Origin: an uncultured Clostridia bacterium
GTDB lineage: Bacteria > Bacillota > Clostridia > UBA1381
Length of the DNA stretch: 64,000 bases
Assembly (NCBI GenBank): GCA_934462715.1
Contig: CAKSIJ010000001.1
Coordinates: 98,130 to 162,129 of the forward strand
Reading direction: 5' to 3'
This document shows, one piece after another, positions 630 through 62,454 of the stretch (position 1 is the stretch's first letter; every line of letters starts with the position of its first letter). The notes under the pieces are model-generated. The model had not been told where the DNA came from. It ran no database searches and was given only the letters and a program-made list of their open reading frames with translations. The translations under genes were made by a program, and so were the position numbers.

Positions 630-3600
630 TCAGTTGTAGTTTCTGACAATTACCAGTGTTTCGTCAAATGCCGAAACAACGTAATCGCCAACTCGTATAT
701 CCGAAAAAGCTCCCTCTGTTACCGGGTTTCTTGAAGCTTTTTTATCCAGAATAACAACCTTATCCTTTGTATAGGTATTGTTGCCGATTGTTAGCTTTCT
801 GTAATACTCCGAACCGTCATTTACAAAGAATACACGGCTGTCTATGCTCTTTTCAACTATTCCCTTTGTAACACACATTTCCTGCCACTGGCTCGGTCCT
901 GTTCTTTTGAGCATTTCCGTTGCCAAAGGCGACGGATTTACATATGTACAGCTCATTTCCGGTTTTCCGGTTTCGGGATTTATATCTCCCAGATTTCTTG
1001 CAAGCAGACAGAAGCCGTTAATCTTACCCGATTCCTTACTTTTTGAAACCAAGATTATATCTCCGGGCTTAAGCTCTTCAATCGGAATATTTGAGTATTG
1101 AGCCTGTGCCGATATTGTTTCGCTCGATGATTTGCTTATAGTGTAGCTCACAAGGTCAGAATTCTCAAATGTAAACTCTTGCTCTTTGCCTATTCTCCAT
1201 GTTCTTGCTGCTTGTATATTGGCATAAAGCTTTATGCTGTATGTGATTTCATCTTTTACGGAATCGTAATGAAGCTCCGGCTCCTCCATTACAACAGCAG
1301 TGCCTGTTTCTTCTTTTTTACCGGAATTGCCGCCCTCATCGGTAACATATCTGATTAACAACCCTACCGTTCCGGTGCTGTTAACGTCATAAAACTCAAT
1401 GTTGTTCCAAGTACCTCCCGGTAATGAGGTACTGTATATTCCCTCATAAGCCTTATACTGGTCATCATCAGCCGATGTATCGGACGGAATAATCAAATAC
1501 ACTCCGTTTATGTTATTGTTTGCAACATTGTACCAATATCCTACATTATAGCCGTAAATACCGCTGCCTCCGACATTTGAGAAATTCTTCATAAATATGC
1601 TCTTGTCTATAAAGAAATCCAGATCCTTTTCTATCTGATTGTACGCAGTTTTGGTATTTGAACCGTCAGCAATGTATAATTCATTTATTTTGTTGTCGGC
1701 ATTTACAGTAAATTTAACCGGCTTTGCGTTGAATGATCCGCCGTCCATTACGGCAAGCTTTTCCTTTGTAAGCTTCTTAGCAAAGTATGTGCTTGTACTT
1801 AGCTTTCCTTCATTCCATTTTTTGTGAACGCTGACCTTGTCGGCAAGTCCGAGCTTTAACATTTCGTTTTCCTGTGTGAATATCTTTGCAAAATATTCGT
1901 CACTGTCCTCGTCCTGTATCAGCTTTACAATATAGCCGTACTTCAAGCCCTCTGCATATGTATTTACGGTAAAGCTTACTATCTTATTATACTTATCCAA
2001 AGACGCAGATACGTTTGAGCCTGTAGGCGGAAGCTTAAAGTCGACCATATCCGGGAACTTTTCATTAAGCTTTTTAAAGGTTTCGGAAAGCTCATATATT
2101 TCATCTCCGATTTTTATTCCCTCATTCCCCGACTTACTGCCGTTAACCTTTCCTGTCACACTGACGCTCATTATTTCTATTGAAATATAAGTTGAGTTAT
2201 CGGTATCGGCATACATAACTCCGTCTTTAAACACAACTCTTGACGGCGCAACCATTAAAAGCATATCCTTTGAAAGGTCTGCATATGAGCTTTTTACACC
2301 GCCGTTTGTTATTGTAACGCTCTCATCATCAAGCTGAATGTTCGGCTGTATTGTAAATTCGTCAAAAAGCTTTGGATCGGTTGTGTTTATAACTCCTACC
2401 TTATAATAAACATAAGACTTTATGCTTACCACTTCATAACCGGACTTGCGGTCGTTGCTGATAAAGGTAATTTCTCCGCTGTCAGGTATAAGCAGCTGCT
2501 TTTTGATATGCTCGTAGTCAACCACAACGCCGTTGAAAACTATATTTGCCGTCTTTGGTATTTCAATATATTTTTCCTTGCTGCTTTCGTCCTCGGTATA
2601 GTAAAGTCTGTTTAAGCTGTCATCATATTTTTCAATATTTCCCGACAGCAGCGTAAACGTTTCGTTATAATCATCAAGCTCCATAATAGCTTTTGCATAT
2701 ACTGTATCGTCCTTATCGTAGAACACACGCACCTTTTTGCCCAAAAGAGCGTCCAGCTCAGATACTGTCATTATATCGCCGAATACGTAATTGTCGTCGC
2801 CGATTTTCAAATAACTCTCGGCAACCGCTCCGCTTTGCGAATATAATGAGGTTTTTGAGTTTGCGGTGACGATTCCGTCGCTGTAATCGAGGTTCATTTC
2901 GTTTAACATATAGCTTGTGGTGTCGTTAACCTCTCTGAAATCGGTCATTACAACGCTGTCTGCGTCAAGCATATTGTAAAGCAGTATAACTGCGTCCTCT
3001 CCGTTCACAACTGAGTTTCCGACAGCAGAAATACCTTTTAACAGTTTTTTCTCCGAAGCTTTGCTGATATAATAAGCTTCTCCCTTATCGTCATATTGGG
3101 TTTTTATAAAGTCATAACCCAGTATTCTTACCATTATTCCGCAAGCCCAGCCTACAGTTATGTCGGAGTCGGGAGAGAATATTCCTCCGCCCACTCCGAT
3201 AACGGCGCCCTTATTTATAAGACTTGCAACCGCATGATAACATTCCATATCAGAGGTCACGTCATGGAATCTGTAGTGTCCCTCCTCCTCGGAATAATCG
3301 CCGCCGTAATTTATCAGGTTTGCCATGTATTCTGAAAACTTTGCTCTTGATACCGTGCCGAAATAGTCAAATTCACTGTCCTGAATAATTCCGAGCTGGT
3401 TTAAAACCTGCATTTTTGACTCTGTACCCTTTTTCAGAGTTTTTTCATCAGGTTTATCCTCCGGTTTGCTGTCATTTGCGTTATTTTCGCCGTTTTCGCC
3501 CTGATTGTCATTATCTTCCTTGTTTTTCTCGGCAATCTTCTTTAAAAGATCTTCATAAAATGACTGAGCTTCCTCTTCGGTACATTCATAATCGTCCTGC

Positions 3601-3770
3601 AAAGCGGTCAGTATTTCTATGTTCTTATCCTCTGCGTCCGCAACCGTACCGTAATCGTTTACACAGTTTTCAAGATAAGATGTAACTCCGCTTTCGTCAT
3701 ATGCCAAAGCGGTCAGCGGTGACAGGGTCATCGCCGCAAGAGTTATAGCTGCAATAATTCTTTTATTCAC
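630..3770 (-). CDS. Large secreted protein (~1046 aa) with an N-terminal SLH domain and beta-rich repeats of unknown function.
   Basis: GTG start at 3770 is preceded by the RBS AGGGAGG. Signal peptide MNKRIIAAITLAAMTLSPLTALA. SLH-like segment FHDVTSDMECYHAVASLINKGAVIGVGGGIFSPDSDITVGWACGIMVRILG. The track ORF begins further upstream at a TTG. Confidence 0.7.
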   Translation of the reverse strand: MNKRIIAAITLAAMTLSPLTALAYDESGVTSYLENCVNDYGTVADAEDKNIEILTALQDDYECTEEEAQSFYEDLLKKIAEKNKEDNDNQGENGENNANDSKPEDKPDEKTLKKGTESKMQVLNQLGIIQDSEFDYFGTVSRAKFSEYMANLINYGGDYSEEEGHYRFHDVTSDMECYHAVASLINKGAVIGVGGGIFSPDSDITVGWACGIMVRILGYDFIKTQYDDKGEAYYISKASEKKLLKGISAVGNSVVNGEDAVILLYNMLDADSVVMTDFREVNDTTSYMLNEMNLDYSDGIVTANSKTSLYSQSGAVAESYLKIGDDNYVFGDIMTVSELDALLGKKVRVFYDKDDTVYAKAIMELDDYNETFTLLSGNIEKYDDSLNRLYYTEDESSKEKYIEIPKTANIVFNGVVVDYEHIKKQLLIPDSGEITFISNDRKSGYEVVSIKSYVYYKVGVINTTDPKLFDEFTIQPNIQLDDESVTITNGGVKSSYADLSKDMLLMVAPSRVVFKDGVMYADTDNSTYISIEIMSVSVTGKVNGSKSGNEGIKIGDEIYELSETFKKLNEKFPDMVDFKLPPTGSNVSASLDKYNKIVSFTVNTYAEGLKYGYIVKLIQDEDSDEYFAKIFTQENEMLKLGLADKVSVHKKWNEGKLSTSTYFAKKLTKEKLAVMDGGSFNAKPVKFTVNADNKINELYIADGSNTKTAYNQIEKDLDFFIDKSIFMKNFSNVGGSGIYGYNVGYWYNVANNNINGVYLIIPSDTSADDDQYKAYEGIYSTSLPGGTWNNIEFYDVNSTGTVGLLIRYVTDEGGNSGKKEETGTAVVMEEPELHYDSVKDEITYSIKLYANIQAARTWRIGKEQEFTFENSDLVSYTISKSSSETISAQAQYSNIPIEELKPGDIILVSKSKESGKINGFCLLARNLGDINPETGKPEMSCTYVNPSPLATEMLKRTGPSQWQEMCVTKGIVEKSIDSRVFFVNDGSEYYRKLTIGNNTYTKDKVVILDKKASRNPVTEGAFSDIRVGDYVVSAFDETLVIVRNYN

Positions 3771-3789
3771 GTTAATTGTCCTCCCTCTT

Positions 3790-6700
3790 TTAATAGTTAA
3801 AATCAAGAATACCGGCAATCATCTTTGCTGCCTGCGCTCTTGTTACGTTATCCTTAGGTGCGAAACGTCCGCCGCCTACGCCGTTTATAATCATACATTC
3901 TCTCAATATCGACACATTCTTCTTTGCCCAGTCGGAAATTTCATCTTCATCGGCAAACGGGAATATCGTGAAGTAGTAGTCAAGAGATTTTCCTGCTGCT
4001 TCTGCCGCTCTAACAAGTATCGTTGCGATTTCTTCTCTCGTTACGGTTCTGCCTACACCGAAAGTATTATCTCCGATACCGTTTATAACCTCATTCTGAT
4101 AGCACAGCTCCACATATTCGGTGTACCATTGCCCCTGTTCAACATCTGAAAAGCTTACCGCTCCGGCTTCATCATTTTTTTCAAGCTTGAAAGCTGCCGC
4201 AACGATTTTGCAGAGCTCTTCTCTTGTAATAGAAGCGTTCGGATCAAATATTTTTTCTCCCTTGCCCGATATTGCTCCGAGCTTGTAAAGCTTGTTTATG
4301 CTTTCCTCTGCCCATGCAACGTTATCGAGGTCGTCAAATATTTTCGATGATGACGAATTGTTGTTTTCTTCATACCAATCGGGTACGTTGTTTGATATTT
4401 CCGGATTTCCGACTGCCGTTCCGGGGATATAGCTGCTGCCGCCGGAGCCTCCTTTGTGTCCGCCGTTTCCGTTTCCGTCATTACCGCCGGTACTGTTATA
4501 TTCGCTTTTTGCATAAGCTTCAAATGTGCTTTTCAGCTCCTTGATTGTTTTAACCGAAGCTATCTGCTTCTGGAGCTTTTCCGCAACCTTTATCTGCTTT
4601 GTTTCGGCAAGTCTGTTATATGTAGAATAATCTATATTTGTTATATCGTCATACTTTTTCAAAACCGTGCATACGGTTGAATACGAGCTTTGAGCCGAAA
4701 TATCCTCTCTGATTACTTCAAGATAGAATATATCCGAAACATCTTTAAAGCATTTCGCATTTTTAAGCTTACCGACAATATTTTTGCGCTGTGAATCGGT
4801 GAAGCTTTCAAAGAATGTTGCGTATGCATTGTTTTCCCGAATGTTCCAGTATTCGTTGGCATGACTTGCCTTTATTTCATCAATACAGCTTTCGGCATCG
4901 CCCCAGATATATATGCTCATTTCAAGAGCGTTGTTGTATATGCTCTTAAAATACGAAACAACATTGTCGTTTCTGTCGGCATAGGTTTTGTTTTCCAGTA
5001 TTGCGCCGAAAAGCAGATCTTTGTTTTCAAGACTTGTAAAGCTTGAGTCGAGAATACAAAGCGGATCCTTTTCAACGTTAAAGATGTCGGCAGCCTCAAC
5101 AGCCGAAATGCTTGAAGCATTGTCAATCTGCTTTAAGAATGCCTTAACCTCGTCAAGATCCAGATAGTTAAATTCTCTCTCGTATGCCGTATCCTCAAAA
5201 GGCATTTCAATAACTGCCGTATATCTTCCCTTTTCGGTACCGTCTTTAAGTTTAAAGTTATAGTTAACCTCGCCGTTTTTGCCTGTCTTTACCGCTTCTG
5301 CTCTTATAAGCTTATCTATAGTGTTATCGTCGCCCTTTTTTCGGATTTTAACGATAACAGGAAGTCCCGATCGCTTTGTTTTGCTGTAACCGGTAACTTC
5401 GACAATTTCTTTTTCCGAATCGTATCCGACTGAAATTTTTGTTTCGTTTTTGGGTGTTATGTCTGTTGTTTTGGTTTCGCGGGCAAGCGGTTCGGTAATT
5501 GGGCTGTTCAGAAGCTTTCCTATGCTTCCGTCCGCATTTTTCTCATACACAGCAATTTCATAGCCGTCATATTCCGAAATTTTGCCGGTTCCTACGGCTA
5601 AAACAATGCTTTTACTTTCCTTTGCGCCGAGTGTTCCCTCCGTAAATGCCGTAACTTCGCATTTTTTATCCTTGTAAAGCGAAGCGGCATAATATACATT
5701 CAAGCTTTCGCCGGTATTGTTTTTATACAATGCCTTTATTTTGTTTGAAAGCACCTTTTCCACCTCGTACGAAACAGGGTAATTTTCTGTCGTAAAGCTG
5801 AATTTTGTGTCTTCACCGAGCTTTCCTGTAACGGCTGAGGGCTTTGGTATTGCAGAAAGTCCCTTACCGAGAGTTACGGTATATTTTTCTCCCTTTTCAA
5901 GCGGATATTCGGGGGTAATTTTAAGCCTTGTTCCGTCAGCTTCAACCGTTGCCGGTATTTCCTGCTCCGAATCGGATATTATTACGTTTCCGTCAACAGT
6001 TTCGGTATCAATCGGATTTGAAAATTCAAATTCAAAGCTCTGGTTGACGCTGATGTCGTTTCTTGTTTCAGGAGTTACGCTTTGTATTGTAAAATCGTTT
6101 CCGCACTTTACAACATAAGCTTCTTTTACAAGGTTATTATTTCCCGTGTGGAAATACAGACCGCCGCTCCAGGAGGAACAGTCAAAATCACCCGTGCCTA
6201 TCAACTCACCGTTAACATACGATGCATATGACATATATCCCTCGCTCTTGCTATGCTCTGTCGGATTGTCTATAACAATATTTACCTGACGCCAGCCGGC
6301 AGTTCTGCCTCTGCTTACAAAGTTTGCGCTTTTCGGGGTCGGATACCAGCGCAAGCTGGTTGAATGCCAGCGATTCAAAACGCCGCCGTAAAAAATCCTA
6401 TAGTTATAATTGCCATAGTATATATATGAATCGATATCCGTTGTTCCCGTATCGTAAATCATGAATGAAGCAATGTGCGGTGTTGTTACATCCATATCAA
6501 TTTTGTTCAAAGCATATTGATCGTTATATTCCGGAAAACCGTAGTATGACATATATACATAATCTCTCATCCCGGTAAAGTCCTCAACTCTGCCCAGATA
6601 ATTTGTAGGCTTGTCAAGCACAAAATTTCCCGATTCGTTTTTATCGCTGACAACCGTTAGTATAAACTGCAGTGAAGTCGAGCCTTTGGTTGCTGTCAGC

Positions 6701-7896
6701 ACCGTAAAACCCGAAGAAACAGCCGTTATCATGCCGTTATCGTCAACCTCTGCAACCGCCGGTTCCGAGGATTTAAAGGTATATCCCTCAAGATTTGATT
6801 TGGTTCTTTTAATGCTGCCAACAGTATTCCCTTTCTGTCCGTCGCTTACCTCATATATCACAATCTGCTGTGTTTCTCCCGGCTGCATAAGAGTTGATGT
6901 TTCCGATATGTCGGCAGAGGCTGTGCTCATGTGCAGCTCCTTATCCTGTGCGTAACCTTTATACCAACCCTTGGTATCGGCATAGGGCTTTATCGTATCA
7001 TGCTTTTCAAGCTTTACGTCATCAATATAATAAATATCATAATTAGCCTTATCATTCTGCTTTGATAAGCCGTCCGGGAACATAATTTCCAGATCTTCAA
7101 GCGCATGATTGTATATAAACGTAAGAGAAATATCCTGCCAGTCGCTTTCTATGCCGACTTTAGCAGATTGCGGTCTTGCTATCGGGTAATATCTGTCGGT
7201 GTTATCTTTTGACAGTATGTTTATGTAGCTTTTTGCTCCCGTCTTTATTCTCTCGCCCTTTATCTTACAGCTTACGGTGTAGCACTCTCCATATGCAATA
7301 TCGGAATAAAACTCTTCAAGCGGAATTGCTATTTTAATTTTATTGTTTGATGGATGAGTTTTTGTATCGTATTCAAACTTAACGCTTCCTCCGCCGTTTC
7401 CGGTTGCGTCAACCGATGAATCAAAGCTTATCTTTCCGTCCGGATTTGTCCAGTCCGCAAGCTCAGATTCGTTATCAAAAGTATAGCTGCCGCCGCCCTT
7501 TACAAAGCTTGATTCAACAGGCGCGCTCATCAATACCGGATTATCCTCTGTTTCACTGCCCGATTCTGCCGACGGCTCGGATTCTTGCTCATTCTTATCG
7601 GCTTCCTCCGGTTTTGTTTCTTCGTTTTTGCCGCTATCTTCGCTATCCTCCTGTTCTCCGCCGTTTTCATCCGCAGTTTCATCATCGGATTCGGTTGAGT
7701 TCGTTTCTTCCGTTTTGGTATTTTCGGTATTCTCCGAATTTTCTGTGTTTTCGATTTCTTTCCCTTTTTCATTTTCGGAAATAATCTCGTCAACCGACAT
7801 TACCTGTTCATTTTCCGCTTCCGCTCCGGCGATAACTCCGCCAACGCTTTGTGCTGCCAATGTGCAGACAATCAATAAGGTTACAATTTTTTTCAT
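3790..7896 (-). CDS. S-layer-anchored surface protein of 1368 aa. Signal peptide, acidic low-complexity linker, CBM4_9-like module, Big_2, lectin/LamG-like and SbsA-type Ig domains, then three C-terminal SLH domains.
   Basis: RBS AAAGGAG precedes the ATG. Three C-terminal SLH repeats (WAEESINKLYKLGAISGKG..., FSDVEQGQWYTEYVEL..., FADEDEISDWAKKNVSIL...). CBM motif ANYDIYYIDDVKLEK. Big_2-like TFKSSEPAVAEVDDNGMITAVSSG. Confidence 0.8.
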   Translation of the reverse strand: MKKIVTLLIVCTLAAQSVGGVIAGAEAENEQVMSVDEIISENEKGKEIENTENSENTENTKTEETNSTESDDETADENGGEQEDSEDSGKNEETKPEEADKNEQESEPSAESGSETEDNPVLMSAPVESSFVKGGGSYTFDNESELADWTNPDGKISFDSSVDATGNGGGSVKFEYDTKTHPSNNKIKIAIPLEEFYSDIAYGECYTVSCKIKGERIKTGAKSYINILSKDNTDRYYPIARPQSAKVGIESDWQDISLTFIYNHALEDLEIMFPDGLSKQNDKANYDIYYIDDVKLEKHDTIKPYADTKGWYKGYAQDKELHMSTASADISETSTLMQPGETQQIVIYEVSDGQKGNTVGSIKRTKSNLEGYTFKSSEPAVAEVDDNGMITAVSSGFTVLTATKGSTSLQFILTVVSDKNESGNFVLDKPTNYLGRVEDFTGMRDYVYMSYYGFPEYNDQYALNKIDMDVTTPHIASFMIYDTGTTDIDSYIYYGNYNYRIFYGGVLNRWHSTSLRWYPTPKSANFVSRGRTAGWRQVNIVIDNPTEHSKSEGYMSYASYVNGELIGTGDFDCSSWSGGLYFHTGNNNLVKEAYVVKCGNDFTIQSVTPETRNDISVNQSFEFEFSNPIDTETVDGNVIISDSEQEIPATVEADGTRLKITPEYPLEKGEKYTVTLGKGLSAIPKPSAVTGKLGEDTKFSFTTENYPVSYEVEKVLSNKIKALYKNNTGESLNVYYAASLYKDKKCEVTAFTEGTLGAKESKSIVLAVGTGKISEYDGYEIAVYEKNADGSIGKLLNSPITEPLARETKTTDITPKNETKISVGYDSEKEIVEVTGYSKTKRSGLPVIVKIRKKGDDNTIDKLIRAEAVKTGKNGEVNYNFKLKDGTEKGRYTAVIEMPFEDTAYEREFNYLDLDEVKAFLKQIDNASSISAVEAADIFNVEKDPLCILDSSFTSLENKDLLFGAILENKTYADRNDNVVSYFKSIYNNALEMSIYIWGDAESCIDEIKASHANEYWNIRENNAYATFFESFTDSQRKNIVGKLKNAKCFKDVSDIFYLEVIREDISAQSSYSTVCTVLKKYDDITNIDYSTYNRLAETKQIKVAEKLQKQIASVKTIKELKSTFEAYAKSEYNSTGGNDGNGNGGHKGGSGGSSYIPGTAVGNPEISNNVPDWYEENNNSSSSKIFDDLDNVAWAEESINKLYKLGAISGKGEKIFDPNASITREELCKIVAAAFKLEKNDEAGAVSFSDVEQGQWYTEYVELCYQNEVINGIGDNTFGVGRTVTREEIATILVRAAEAAGKSLDYYFTIFPFADEDEISDWAKKNVSILRECMIINGVGGGRFAPKDNVTRAQAAKMIAGILDFNY

Positions 7897-7965: not shown

Positions 7966-10900
7966 TTACTTGTTGTATGTTGCTTTCGCGCAATACGGAA
8001 CCATGCTCTCAACGCCGTTCCAGAGATAGCACTCAAGAATATTTGCGTTCTCACATTCTCCGCTTATGGTGATTTTTCCGTCAACCGCAGCAGGAATATC
8101 GCCAATTACCGTATTGATAAGTTTTCCGTTTTTATCCTTTTCCGCAAGAATTGCTTTACCTGCCAATTGCGCCTTATCACTGTTGAAAATAAAGCTTACT
8201 GTTTTTTTAGCGTTAGCTTCTGATTCAATGTATTTGTCAAAGCTTACTCCCCCGGAAACGGTAAAGCTGTAAACATTGCTCTTTTGCTCTGCTTTATAAT
8301 TCTTAGACAAATTCATTGCCGTAACGGTGTAGTAATAAGTTCCGCTTTCGGGAATCCATGCGGTGTCGGTGTTTGTGTCAAGCCTGTTCTTGTATACTAT
8401 ATCGCTCATATCGGCTGTTCTTGAAATTTCCACTCTGTATGCGCTTGCACCGGATATGCTGCTCCAGATAAGCTGTACTGTCTTATCCGTCGCATTTACC
8501 TTTGCCAATCTTTCAACAGGCATTTCAAGTTCGGTATCATAATCCGCCGCCGAATTTCCTATGCTTGCAAATTCAATTCTTTGGAACTGCGGCATATACT
8601 TAAACAACTCGGCTGTCTGTTCAAAGTTTCTGTTGTCGAAATCTTCGAACCATGACTTAAATACATCGGTGGATTCACCCTTATTATCAGCATAAATCTT
8701 CTGCAATTTGTCAATCTGATCGGTAGTCCATGACAGATTATCCGATTCAAAATCATCAAGCACATAGGATTGAGCCGTTTCGGGTATGAAATCCTTGCCG
8801 CTTTCGGGGATTGTCATGTAAACTTCCTTTATATATGTCGGAAGTCCGTTTACCGGCATTGAAGCTACAATACTGATTTTTTCGCCGTTGGTAACCGCTA
8901 CGGTGCAGAGCTTAACTCCGTCATGATACCATGTAAGTTTTCCGCTGTCGTCAAGCATACCCGTTACCTGATGCCAGCCTGCGTATCTTTTTCTTCTGCC
9001 GCCGGTATTGGTTATTTCGTATTGTCCGGGTATCCATCTATCCGACATTGTGATAGCACGTCTGTCATTGCCAAATTGGAATCCTGCGCTCACGCTTCCG
9101 TTATTGTTGTTTGACAAAAGACCGCTGTCGAAATATTTGTAGCTGAATGTCATACCGGGCTGTGCCGTTATATCCGTCTGCTTTGACGATTCGGAATAAG
9201 GTCTTAAAACCTCGCCGTTATATATCGGATCATCATCCTTTACATAACCGTCCGTTCCGTTAAAGCCGTAAACACTTTCATTATCAGAAACAACCGTAAC
9301 ATACATACTTGCGGTATTTTCGTTTACATCGGTAACTGTAATTTTCGCATTACCCGAAGCGACCGCTTTGATCTTTCCGTCGACAATTTCAGCTGCTGCG
9401 GTATTATCCGATACTGCCGAACCGATTTGAACTGTCTGTGCATTGAATTTAAGTTCATCGCCGGAAATTATGCCGTCACCGTCATTATCTGTTGTTTCTG
9501 CCGTTATAACGCTTGCTTTGATTTCTGTTTCGTCACCTGTCTTTAATACAGACTTTGTTTCCGACAAATCAAGCTTTGCCGATTCGTACTTATATGTTGC
9601 AGCTGTGTAAATATCGTTAAGGCTCGGAGTAGGTAACATCTGTTCGGAATACATCACCTTTTCAGCCTTTACGTCATCTATATAGAATATATCACCGACA
9701 GAGCACTGCGGGAATGAGATGACAGCCGAATTATTGTTATCGTTCGATACCCAGTAGCAGTAGATCTGAACCCATTCGCCGGCAGGGATATTAACCTCGC
9801 CGTTGCCCTCGACAGTGAACGGGAAATCTCTGTAATGCGTAAGATTGGTCGGATTGTTGTCGGTTGAAATCTTAACCTTTGCGGCATCGGCAACCTTGTC
9901 TGCATAAATCCATGCGCTGATTTTATAAATCTCACCCGGCTTTGCGTTGCTTCCGAGCTGTTTTTTGATTGCTGTATTTGCAGACTGTTTAATTTCATAC
10001 TTCATAGCCTTTTCGCCGTTATGTGCCTTTCCGCTGCTGACAGAAGCGTCCTGATACATACTTCCCATCACGGACACATTATTTTTATAGGTTGTATTAT
10101 AACCGGCGGTTTTCGGATTCCACCACACGCCTACCGGGTTCATGTTAAAGCTCTTTTTATCTGCAATTGTGAGGTTGTTTGTTATTGTAACATTCCACGG
10201 CAGACCTGCGTCAAATTTAATTGATTCGTCATATGAAACACTGCCGTTTTCATCTGTTGTTTTTGAATTGAGATATGCCTTTTCCTTTGCAAGGTCTTTG
10301 AGTAAGCCGTCCCAGAACGGATAAGCAGCTTTCCATTTTTCAACGTCATATTTCGGATTTTTCATCAATCTCTTGAATGATGCCGTTTCGAAAGTATCAT
10401 GACCTCTTATCCAGCCGCCGATAGTCATTCTTGTGTCGTATGCACCGACATTGCTGTCGATAAACAGGTTATTATTCCACGTATTGTCACGGCCGCCGCC
10501 TACAAGACCGGCAGACAAGCTGTCTGAAACAATATTATTTTCAACAGTGATTCCCGAGCTTCCGTTATCTGAATAGATTGCGTAAATTCCGCCCCAGTTC
10601 ATGTATGACTTTGAAAGATCGTGAATATAGTTGTTTTTAATCTGTATACCTGTGTTTTCAAGGAAATTAATTCCGTATACCGCGCCAGCGTCAAACAGTC
10701 CTCTTACAACGTTATAGATTTCATTGTTTTCTATAAGCATACCGTTGCTGTTGCTCTTCATGAACACGCCCTGTGAGGTTGAATCGTGGATAACGTTGTG
10801 TTTTACGCTGTTACCCATACCGGCAAGAATAACTCCGCCCTCGTTGGTTGCTTCCTGTGAAAAATCATAGATATGGCAATTTTCAACGGTGTTGTTTCCG

Positions 10901-59767: not shown

Positions 59768-61123
59768 TCAGTCCTCTGAAGCGGCATAATCGATATTGAC
59801 AAACTTTGTATATCTTCCCTGCCAGCCAAGCTTAAACGTTCCTGTCGAACCGCTTCTTTGCTTTGCAATAATAACCTCAGCTATATTCTTTTCGGGACTC
59901 TCCTTATTGTAGTAATCGTCACGGTATAAAAACATAACCATATCGGCGTCCTGCTCTATCGCTCCCGATTCTCTCAAATCGGACAACATAGGTCTTTTAT
60001 CGCTTCTTGTTTCGCTTGTTCTTGAAAGCTGCGACAGTGCAATTACCGGAATATCAAGCTCCTTTGCAAGCACCTTTAAGGATCTCGATATATCGGATAT
60101 TTCCTGCTGTCGGTTATCGTTTTTTCTTCCGCCGCTGCCCTGCATAAGCTGTAAATAGTCAATTACGACAAGTCCGAGATTCTTTGTCTGCTTCAGTCGG
60201 CGGCACTTTGCTCTTATTTCAGAAACCGTGACCGAAGATGTATCGTCTATATAAATCGGCGCAGCGGAAAGCTTGTCGATAACGGCGCATATCTGCTGCC
60301 AGTCCTCAGGCTGAAATTCTCCCTTTCTTACATTCTGGGAATCAACAAGTGCCTGCGAGCAGATTATACGGTTAACTATCATACTTTTTGACATTTCAAG
60401 GTTGAAAATCGCAACCGGAATGTTATCATTGATTGCTGCGTGTTCCGCAATATTAACGGCAAAACTCGACTTACCCATACCCGGTCTGCCGGCTATTATT
60501 ATAAGCTCACCGCCATGCAATCCTCCGGTTGCGTTGTTTATGTAATTGAATCCCGTAGAAATTCCCGTTACACTGCCTTTGTTCAGCGAGTTCTGTACCA
60601 TATCGTCATATGCGGTCATCATGATTTCGCTGATATGAACTATATCGGACTGTTCCTTTCCCGATGTGACGTCAAGTATCATCTGCTCGGAACGGTCTAT
60701 TATTCTGTCGGTTGTATCTCCCTCGTCATATGCCATGGACAGTATGCTTTGCGTGGAGTAAATCAATCTGCGCAGAGCAGACTTGTCCTTTACTATTTTT
60801 GAATAATACTCAACATTATTCGTTGTAGGCACAGCAAGTACAAGTGAACTCAAATACGGTACTCCGCCGATTGCGTCAAGCTTGTCATGCTGATTAAGCC
60901 TGTCCGAAACAGTAACGATATCGACAGGCTTATTTTCGTTGAACAGCTCCATCATTACCGCATAAATTTCCTTGTTCTGTCCAAAGAAAAAATCATCGGC
61001 TTTGAGAATTTCGCACGCAACACCGACAGCATTGGAGCTTGAGAGCATACTGCCTAAAACCGATTGCTCGGCTTCCTTGCTGTGAGGCAGAGGACGCTCT
61101 GAAATATTTATGTTCTCCGGCAT
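59768..61123 (-). CDS. dnaB: Replicative DNA helicase DnaB.
   Basis: N-terminal LPHSKEAEQSVLGSML. Walker A GRPGMGKS. 451 aa. Confidence 0.95.
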   Translation of the reverse strand: MPENINISERPLPHSKEAEQSVLGSMLSSSNAVGVACEILKADDFFFGQNKEIYAVMMELFNENKPVDIVTVSDRLNQHDKLDAIGGVPYLSSLVLAVPTTNNVEYYSKIVKDKSALRRLIYSTQSILSMAYDEGDTTDRIIDRSEQMILDVTSGKEQSDIVHISEIMMTAYDDMVQNSLNKGSVTGISTGFNYINNATGGLHGGELIIIAGRPGMGKSSFAVNIAEHAAINDNIPVAIFNLEMSKSMIVNRIICSQALVDSQNVRKGEFQPEDWQQICAVIDKLSAAPIYIDDTSSVTVSEIRAKCRRLKQTKNLGLVVIDYLQLMQGSGGRKNDNRQQEISDISRSLKVLAKELDIPVIALSQLSRTSETRSDKRPMLSDLRESGAIEQDADMVMFLYRDDYYNKESPEKNIAEVIIAKQRSGSTGTFKLGWQGRYTKFVNIDYAASED

Positions 61124-61230
61124 ATTTCCTGAATACTCCTTTTAATAATAATATAAACAAATTCTCCATTCAAATTTCCGCAATGTATTTGGAAATACAA
61201 AAGTTCAAATCAAACAAACGCCGTAATAGC

Positions 61231-61887
61231 GTGTCCCACATATCCGTGTAGGACGCGCGGTATAAGCGAGTTCTTGCAATTGAACTTTTTTATTTGCGCC
61301 TTTTGGCAAATAAAAAGAGTTCATTTGCAAGGTGTCCGAAGCTATCCACACCAGGGGTGGTAAATCCGTTTAGGTGGCAATTCAAGTGAAGCGCTGCCTG
61401 TGGCAGATTAAGCGAGCTTGAATTGGTTCGGTTTCACAGAGCAATGCGACCTTTGGGAGCAGTGCGACAATGAAACCAGCGGGAACAACGTTGTAATTAC
61501 CGTAGACTAAATAGGGCTCGGCGGCTTTTGGAGCTTTTCGCCGCCCGAAAAGCGGAGGGCGTACAAAAAGTAAAAGTTACCGAAAACTATAACGCCACAA
61601 ACGTGAGGTTGTGGTTATAGTCTATATAAAGATAGTTACTTTCATATTTAATGCGGAAATTACTGCTTTTGCGTATTTGGAGCTATAGCTAACGGTTATT
61701 GTTACTTTTTCTACTCCTTCCGCTTTTCGGCGGCGAAAAGCTCCAAAAGCCGCCGATAGGCGGGAGAACCCGCCTAAACGGATTTACCACCCCGGTGTGG
61801 ATAGCTTCGGACATCTTGCCAAGTTCGCTCCGCTTTGCTGCGCAAACTTGCAAGAACTCGCTTATACTCTTACCGCTACACAACTGT
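61231..61887. repeat. Imperfect inverted repeat (foldback) element of ~660 bp in the dnaB-rplI spacer, with perfectly complementary blocks and nested local hairpins. Candidate large structured ncRNA or a MITE-like element.
   Basis: Block pairs: 61231-61279 with 61848-61887, 61334-61374 with 61773-61812, and 61519-61555 with 61710-61755. The left arm carries a ~140-nt insertion that has its own stems. The mirror ORFs here are artefacts. Confidence 0.6.
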
Positions 61888-62007
61888 GTGGGACACCCTT
61901 TTGCAACGTTTATTAATTTTATTTGTTTGCTTTTTCCCGATGCAGACGGCAACCACAAAAAATAGTTAATGTTTATGAACAGCACAATTTTTAAAATATG
62001 CAATATT

Positions 62008-62454
62008 TTAAAGCTCTGTGACCTCTACTTTTAGTTTTGCCGTTACTCCTGCGTGTACCTTGATATCAACAACGGTAGTACCCAAAGTTTTAATACCATC
62101 GGGCATTACGAATTTTTTCTTATCAATCTTAATATGGTGCTGCATGGTAAGCGCTTCTGAAACGTCCTTTGATGTAACAGAGCCGAACAGCTTACCGTTA
62201 TCCCCTGCCTTAGCCTTAATCGACACCTTTATTTCATCGATTTTCGCAGCGGTCTGTTTAGCTTCGTCAAGCTCCTTTTGCTGACGGTATTCCAAGCTTT
62301 CCTGCTGACCCTTCATAACGTTTATATTATCTTTGGTAGCCGGCTTTGCCAGATTTCTCGGCAGAAGAAAATTTCTTGCGTAGCCGTCCGAAACGTCTAC
62401 CATCTGACCCTTTTTACCCTGTCCCTTTACATCTTGATTCAAAATAACCTTCAT
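62008..62454 (-). CDS. rplI: 50S ribosomal protein L9.
   Basis: MKVILNQDVKGQGKKGQMVDVSDGYARNFLLPRNLA. Confidence 0.95.
   Translation of the reverse strand: MKVILNQDVKGQGKKGQMVDVSDGYARNFLLPRNLAKPATKDNINVMKGQQESLEYRQQKELDEAKQTAAKIDEIKVSIKAKAGDNGKLFGSVTSKDVSEALTMQHHIKIDKKKFVMPDGIKTLGTTVVDIKVHAGVTAKLKVEVTEL

Follow-up and report, generated by a model that had tools for sequence, protein, structure and literature searches.

The window, which is the whole 64-kb stretch of DNA analysed, carries the gdpP-rplI-dnaB block with all three genes on the minus strand, and the spacer between rplI and dnaB measures 884 bp (Table 1). A sequence-only reading of this DNA had reported a gap of about 880 bp at a place where the spacer is usually short, and both statements held: relatives at 82-84% RplI identity showed rplI-dnaB spacers of 19-42 bp. 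Sequence comparison revealed that the spacer is homologous nearly end to end to other copies of a repeat, and the unit HMM (nhmmer) matched it from 61668 to 61117 on the minus strand and from 61606 to 62026 on the plus strand. The long imperfect inverted repeat claimed earlier was recovered as nested pairs, the outermost at 61193/61933 and the others continuing inwards; the interval 61231-61887 first given for it is real, but the arms extend further, to about 61193-61933. The MFE was -356.3 kcal/mol for the minus strand and -365.1 for the plus strand, against -195 and -206 for shuffles (z = -26 and -21), and either strand gave a near-continuous rod. Such equal fold stability of both strands is expected of a DNA palindrome. 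The perfectly conserved complementary blocks of 35-48 nt described earlier were not recovered, as the longest perfect runs are 28, 21, 20 and 20 nt and the arm blocks of 33-54 nt are 91-96% complementary. The 140-nt multi-stem insertion of the left arm is present as described and stands opposite just 13 nt in the right arm. The mirror ORFs, correctly called artefacts, are both there; they have no Pfam family and indels between copies are not in multiples of three, so they are not genes.

Table 1. Positions of the genes, repeat units and structural features (numbering of the window unless a contig is named).
Feature	Position	Strand	Basis
gdpP	62484..>63989	-	
rplI	62008..62454	-	
dnaB	59768..61123	-	
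rplI-dnaB spacer, nearly all filled by the foldback alpha/beta doublet	61124..62007	.	gene coordinates, unit-HMM matches, fold
Unit A, alpha subtype; carries the 140-nt module; tail towards dnaB	61150..61669	-	unit alignment, nhmmer, covariance model
Unit B, beta subtype; tail towards the rplI end, antisense to rplI	61606..61995	+	unit alignment, nhmmer
AT-rich centre, overlapping 5' leaders	61600..61680	.	homologous in the doublets of L037 and L096
H_B of unit B: stem GGCGGC/GCCGCC, invariant 14-nt loop GAAAAGCTCCAAAA	61729..61754	+	stem variants; covariation
H_B, mirror copy in unit A	61520-61545	-	
H_C of unit B: TAGGCGGG-AGAA-CCCGCCTA, then conserved linker AACGGATTTACC	61757..61776	+	helix 2 of covariation test
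H_E of unit B: CTTGC-C-AAGTT...AACTT-GCAAG, then conserved AACTCGC	61815..61854	+	helix 3 of covariation test
140-nt multi-hairpin module in place of H_C, unit A	61378..61517	-	strain and site comparison
Terminator-like hairpin and T-run, unit A tail	61218..61232	-	consensus scan
Promoter-like TTGAAT-17-TATTAT, unit A outer end, just upstream of the dnaB ribosome-binding site	61145..61173	-	consensus scan
Mechanical ORF pair, not genes (104 aa / 88 aa)	61689..62003 / 61699..61965	- / +	no Pfam; indels
Phage single unit, L028	~3695-4089	co-directional with genes	nhmmer
Phage single unit, L028	~8874-9258	co-directional with genes	nhmmer
Phage single unit, L035	~2117-2503	co-directional with genes	nhmmer

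The foldback was shown to consist of an alpha and a beta copy, diverged from each other, of a modular, hairpin-rich unit of about 350-420 nt, since phage contigs hold homologous stretches of about 300-400 nt singly, without a partner arm. Units A and B lie back to back, with the 5' ends central, the 3' tails outward and the AT-rich 5' leaders overlapping, and the covariance model matched unit B at 61720-61861 (+) with 167 bits. The two arms of the window are about 78% alike in their 5' parts, that is, they belong to different subtypes. Alpha-type 5' regions were also found in the phage copies L028a, L028b and L034, and beta-type 5' regions in L035 and L032. All chromosomal copies are alpha/beta doublets with overlapping 5' leaders; they range from 737 to 1036 bp, have no coding capacity (their ORFs are without a Pfam family), and their inverted arms of about 350-480 bp reach out to the heptad-bearing ends. 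Within the 64-kb window itself, no second copy was found by BLAST, nhmmer, covariance model or motif searches.

The order of parts within a unit was established in the 5' to 3' direction. It begins with an AT-rich leader, a 5' hairpin (alpha subtype), CCGCTTTTCGG and hairpin H_B, and continues with H_C, AACGGATTTACC, a small hairpin, GGATAGCT, H_E and AACTCGC. The 3' part is one of two alternative modules, each ending in GACCACTATATTTAG, and the 3' end is formed by a GGTCTTCC...GGAA hairpin followed by two to five TTGTCAA-type heptads that adjoin the flank. The GAAAAGCTCCAAAA loop, AACGGATTTACC, GGATAGCT and AACTCGC are invariant unpaired stretches, and the hairpins between them vary with compensation. 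For H_B the stem variants GGCAGC/GCTGCT and GATGGC/GCCACT were observed and both sides had changed in four of six pairs (helix 1); H_C showed at least six different stem sequences, every one fully paired; in H_E both sides had changed in 6 of 12 pairs. The bacterial and phage types of H_E have identical bulge and mismatch geometry and different sequence, and a C-A mismatch is conserved on the sense strand. The 140-nt module of unit A behaves as an expansion of the variable stem H_C.

RNAalifold on MAFFT alignments gave a poor consensus because hairpins of unequal length were misaligned, and it was superseded by per-segment folding and a covariance model built from a hand-specified structure with H_B, H_C and H_E, which recovered every copy. 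In the model alignment, which was fitted to the structure and whose sequences are mutually related, paired cells amounted to 92.1% compared to 81.7% in shuffles (0 of 500 reached it) and 31-47% in slid controls. Changes on both sides were found in 15 of the 26 pairs, a pattern that DNA-level palindrome (quasi-palindrome) correction can mimic. Folding of a single unit barely exceeded shuffles (z -1.3 to -2.8), and G-U pairs were not in excess over A-C pairs (25 vs 23 and 24 vs 20) in alignments that retain register errors. The local hairpins, proposed earlier as conserved features, are conserved at the level of the single unit, where the stems covary and the linkers are invariant; the reading of the whole foldback as one RNA is not supported.

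Consensus scans of expression signals gave the terminator-like and promoter-like sites of unit A listed in Table 1, along with outward TTGACG-16-TATATT or TCTACA-16-TATATT sites near several unit tails. A sigma-70 promoter at the unit 5' end was rejected, as the spacings do not fit and no candidate was convincing. Judging from spacer length, dnaB must be co-transcribed with rplI in relatives having a 19-29-bp spacer, and in the window dnaB expression may rely on the element's outer end.

The variation of the element at rplI-dnaB was followed in ten gut-metagenome contigs with identical RplI, which represent strains of the window species. The element is present at rplI in all ten; eight run on into dnaB, with spacers of 737-883 bp, and L008 and L010 depart from the dnaB context past the element. 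Three strains (L001, L005, L009) lack the 140-nt module, local hairpins are exchanged from strain to strain, and the inserted modules of the arms vary freely. Compared with the tails, the inner segment appears to be inverted in L008 and also in the remnant of L103. In the sister taxon, whose RplI is 91% identical, L019 is filled with a 1036-bp foldback that adds to the common core about three tandem sub-repeats of about 62 nt per outer arm, while L020-22 have a 29-bp spacer. Counted individually, the L019 sub-repeats (2976-3161 and 3779-3891) number three in one outer arm and two in the opposite one; every sub-repeat has a GGTCTTCC...GGGAAC hairpin as well as a TTTCGGTAA motif, which is seen again within the unit.

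Decayed alleles were also found. In the sub-lineage L103-105 the spacer is 199 bp long and contains a truncated beta unit together with a right flank as in L019. L106, with 86% identical RplI, has a 186-bp spacer with a core-hairpin match of about 30 nt around GCTTTTCGCCGCCGAAAAGC (3045-3073, nhmmer E 2e-7), which may be the final trace of the element or a hairpin of independent origin. The presence of filled, remnant and possible relic alleles across lineages indicates that the element at rplI-dnaB is old, and because remnant alleles exist, the 'empty' alleles could equally be deletions. The junctions of L019 and L020 are compatible with a target-site duplication of 2-3 bp or of about 10 bp, and at the other sites the flanking sequences have diverged too far for such a comparison. 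Between the two species the unit cores are 91-92% identical, compared to 82% for gdpP, rplI and dnaB; cores better kept than the flanking genes imply constraint, homogenisation or recent exchange. In one low-coverage contig (L030, positions 1-1160, 1.27x) half of the rplI foldback is joined at its centre to an apparently coding, unrelated region, a join that probably reflects chimeric assembly at the palindrome.

Three intergenic chromosomal sites were identified in the window species, the second and third being reached from the foreign tails of L010 and L008 via the neighbouring proteins. Site 2 is flanked by an ABC permease gene and a Flg_new gene. In L037 it holds units from 3178 to 2793 (-) and from 3114 to 3485 (+), with nhmmer E values of 1e-90 and 1e-97, and in the sister taxon (L039-41) it is an unfilled spacer of 65 bp. 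The terminal heptads of the site-2 element form a perfect TTGACA-16-TATAAT at 3452-3479 (-) of L037, which reads inward and antisense to the unit; the TTGTCAA heptad is the reverse complement of the -35 consensus. Site 3, downstream of a peptidase M18 gene, carries doublets in L096 (window species) and L097 (sister species), and in a more distant relative the spacer there is 113 bp with a different neighbour gene. As the alpha/beta doublets are homologous through the centre at all three sites, the whole doublet has probably been copied between sites.

Exchange of modules among these copies can be seen directly: in the chromosome, copy L096A has an H_E module of the phage type, and the 140-nt module is found at site 1 in the window species and at site 3 in the sister species (L097). 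L008 has the tail of site 3 and L010 the tail of site 2, so that both are joins through the repeat, representing either true recombination or assembly paths.

A metagenome scan with a core 20-mer found copies beyond rplI-dnaB. A search for further copies had been proposed earlier, with many dispersed copies bearing target-site duplications as the sign of a MITE; copies were found as single units in phage contigs and, by way of the foreign tails, as doublets at the other chromosomal sites. A 20-kb phage contig at 101x coverage encodes a repressor, an initiator of the Rep ORF2/G2P type (assigned PF23343, phrog_3584), a capsid protein, a large terminase and a P22-like portal, the last of which is similar to portals of uncultured phages from human faeces. 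Three single units of about 350-400 nt each, without an inverted partner, were found on it, two in L028 and one in L035 (Table 1). Single units also occur on three further contigs, of which L031 continues into a tail tape-measure gene, and three copies stand at contig ends. All six phage copies are co-directional with the flanking genes, and each fills the gap from a stop codon to the ribosome-binding site that follows; an intrinsic terminator comes after one of them, and unit L028b stands directly behind the replication module.

Among 54 IMG/VR loci of capsid-related phages (55-73% identity) no unit was detected by nhmmer or the covariance model, and the nearest relative has a different spacer of about 300 nt and a small ORF at the equivalent junction. 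In L093, a related phage without the unit, another intergenic repeat, made of about three tandem copies of GAAGCGTGCTTCGCACATGAAGACGCTGC, was seen at the capsid/tail-fibre junction (7560-7720). Pattern scans of IMG/VR gave zero matches, blastn against INPHARED and PLSDB gave no match, and one core 20-mer gave eight single chance matches in unrelated taxa among the GTDB species representatives. In the GTDB representative of the window species, either the exact word is missing or the assembly is broken there. Contigs were observed to end inside a unit at the start of L031 and L038 and at the end of L032, L034 and L102, which indicates that the repeat breaks short-read assemblies; such breaks may explain the absence of the core 20-mer from the GTDB representatives.

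Searches for a known class were likewise negative. At a permissive E<=1, Rfam models applied to 60900-62200 on both strands gave a chance miRNA (E = 0.77) as the sole match; thus ROOL, GOLLD, HEARO and OLE, the families singled out for checking by the sequence-only reading, did not match. An Rfam scan of five phage loci with units matched nothing. Group I and II introns, IStrons, DGRs, integron attC sites, phage att sites and protelomerase targets were considered and set aside, as no matching model, enzyme gene or signature was present. No transposase was found near any copy or on the phage contig, nor any other mobilising gene with matching ends, and a full-text literature search returned no description of this element.

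Taken together, the spacer occupant is best explained, with a probability of roughly 0.58, as a non-coding, non-autonomous dispersed foldback repeat of the MITE or REPIN-doublet kind, which exchanges modules with phage copies. The filled and empty alleles of L019 versus L020-22 and of L037 versus L039-41 support a mobile repeat. The foldback MITE had been offered earlier as the alternative interpretation, and it stands as regards doublets dispersed to at least two other loci with filled, decayed and empty alleles; its target-site junctions can be read in two ways, as given above. Copying of the whole doublet to new sites would take place at the level of DNA and depend on a trans-acting function, for which the TTGTCAA heptads near the ends and the tandem sub-repeats of about 62 nt in the outer arms would be the recognition sites. 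The copies would later keep swapping modules by recombination or gene conversion, both mutually and with the copies of phages that infect the host. In the window the element stands between the essential dnaB and rplI, and its outer end probably supplies or retains a dnaB promoter. The long palindrome would account for the variation in length, the flipping of inner segments and the breaks in assemblies.

The dispersed-repeat interpretation is opposed by the low known copy number, with three chromosomal sites, and by the fixation of the element in 10 of 10 sampled strains. The failure to find a mobilising gene and the negative scans of IMG/VR, INPHARED, PLSDB and, for one core 20-mer, the GTDB species representatives also speak against it. 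The invariant unpaired motifs, together with the covarying stems, suggest that the unit itself is under selection, a feature that a purely selfish MITE leaves unexplained, and the single, co-directional phage units are not predicted by a transposase needing two inverted ends. The unit could serve as the recognition platform of a mobilising enzyme, as a phage cis-RNA or as a single-stranded-DNA site.

Comparison with known elements places the repeat as an unusual variant: its modular arms are very long, its copy number is low, it has persisted for a long time, and its half-elements are shared and exchanged with phages. Like bacterial MITEs and eukaryotic-style foldback (FB) elements it is non-coding, intergenic, dispersed and shorter than 1 kb, with filled and empty alleles and with inverted arms that span nearly all of the element and include sub-repeats. 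It differs from them in arms of 350-480 bp that are modular and carry conserved hairpins, in its low copy number, and in half-elements in phage contigs; no parent IS or clean target duplication was identified. With REPINs it shares the dispersed inverted doublet of hairpin units, the occurrence of singlets and the covariation of hairpin stems. However, REPINs are built of 20-40-nt REP units with a GTAG-type signature, a RAYT and hundreds of copies, whereas here the unit is about ten times longer and occupies three sites. BIME, BOX, ERIC and Correia elements are mosaic intergenic repeats that are similarly modular, differ from copy to copy in which modules they have or have swapped, and may include promoters or terminators; the present repeat is much larger, is confined to one lineage and is shared with phages.

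The element accounts for an anomalous 884-bp gap in a gene block that ranks among the most conserved in Firmicutes. It further indicates that an essential helicase gene tolerates a palindrome of 0.7-1 kb in front of it in every sampled strain of the species, and that a repeat family is common to chromosomes and phages and continually exchanged between them. Repeats of this sort cause rearrangements and breaks in metagenome assemblies, and they can also rewire promoters. If the unit were a functional RNA or single-stranded-DNA element, it would represent a new phage-associated structured class that is absent from Rfam.

This last possibility was framed in a broader and a narrower form. In the broader form, which is held tentatively, each unit of about 350-420 nt would be a previously undescribed structured element of temperate gut phages, either a large cis-acting or non-coding RNA or a folded single-stranded-DNA site, with invariant loops and covarying stems, used several times per phage at operon boundaries and captured in host chromosomes as lasting back-to-back doublets, in the window between rplI and dnaB. 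In the narrower form each unit would be a new structured RNA of phage origin, non-coding or cis-acting, transcribed together with the gene behind it or in the direction of that gene; a leader or an element for processing or antitermination would be examples. On this view the chromosomal foldback would consist of two copies of the RNA gene facing away from each other, and dispersal would be secondary. This was considered doubtful. The invariant unpaired stretches between compensating stems, the surplus of paired cells with two-sided changes, and cores conserved better than the flanking genes agree with a structured RNA, as do the consistent orientation of the phage copies between stop codon and ribosome-binding site, the terminator after one of them and the resemblance of the 140-nt module to a variable-stem expansion. 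Against it, a single unit folds only slightly better than shuffles, G-U pairs do not exceed A-C pairs (a weak point, given the register errors), the sense strand of H_E keeps a C-A mismatch, and the unit 5' end has no convincing promoter. Quasi-palindrome correction of the DNA can yield compensatory changes too, and the 54 related phage loci are without the unit.

A folded single-stranded-DNA site, such as a single-strand origin, a priming site or the hairpins of an HUH nuclease, was regarded as unlikely. Action in one orientation would explain why all phage copies point alike, and the Rep ORF2/G2P-type initiator on the phage contig, together with the position of L028b directly after the replication module, is consistent with it. 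In ssoA-type origins the structure is conserved around invariant loops. By analogy, the conserved structure of the unit without an RNA-specific G-U bias may be of this type, and the likeness would extend to orientation dependence, conserved loop motifs in a hairpin region and a place next to a rolling-circle Rep gene. Unlike those origins, the unit occurs in several copies across the phage and in chromosomal doublets; three copies across the head and tail modules are atypical for an origin, and doublets at unrelated chromosomal sites are left unexplained.

A recent accidental inverted duplication, suggested earlier as a fallback, or an invertible (phase-variable) promoter switch for dnaB is very improbable. 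The flipped inner segment of L008 and of the L103 remnant would suit such a switch; L008 also leaves the locus, so that the flip there may be an assembly path through the repeat, and no invertase gene lies nearby. The arms are of different subtypes, and a one-off duplication is refuted by homologous doublets at other loci and in a second species and by homologous units in phage contigs. Scarcely credible, finally, is the earlier suggestion that the whole foldback of about 700 nt is one ornate RNA of the ROOL/GOLLD/OLE size class: the fitting size, the very stable predicted fold with many side hairpins and, for ROOL and GOLLD, the phage association recall that class, to which raiA and HEARO may be added, but no covariance model matched, no IscB/TnpB gene accompanies the element as with HEARO, the strands fold equally well into a rod-like palindrome rather than a multi-domain structure, a near-perfect duplex of about 300 bp is unlike known ornate RNAs, one half occurs alone in phage contigs, and the arms differ freely in inserted modules among strains.

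A separate polymorphism was noticed in the neighbourhood of the locus. At positions 1-69 of L005, L006 and L008, upstream of a PdaC-like gene and gdpP, SpoIVA, which has 492 aa in other strains, was called as 650 aa, and the product contains Resolvase, Recombinase and Zn_ribbon_recom domains in addition to SpoIVA_C. This suggests a skin-like intervening element bearing a serine recombinase in or beside spoIVA, polymorphic between strains.
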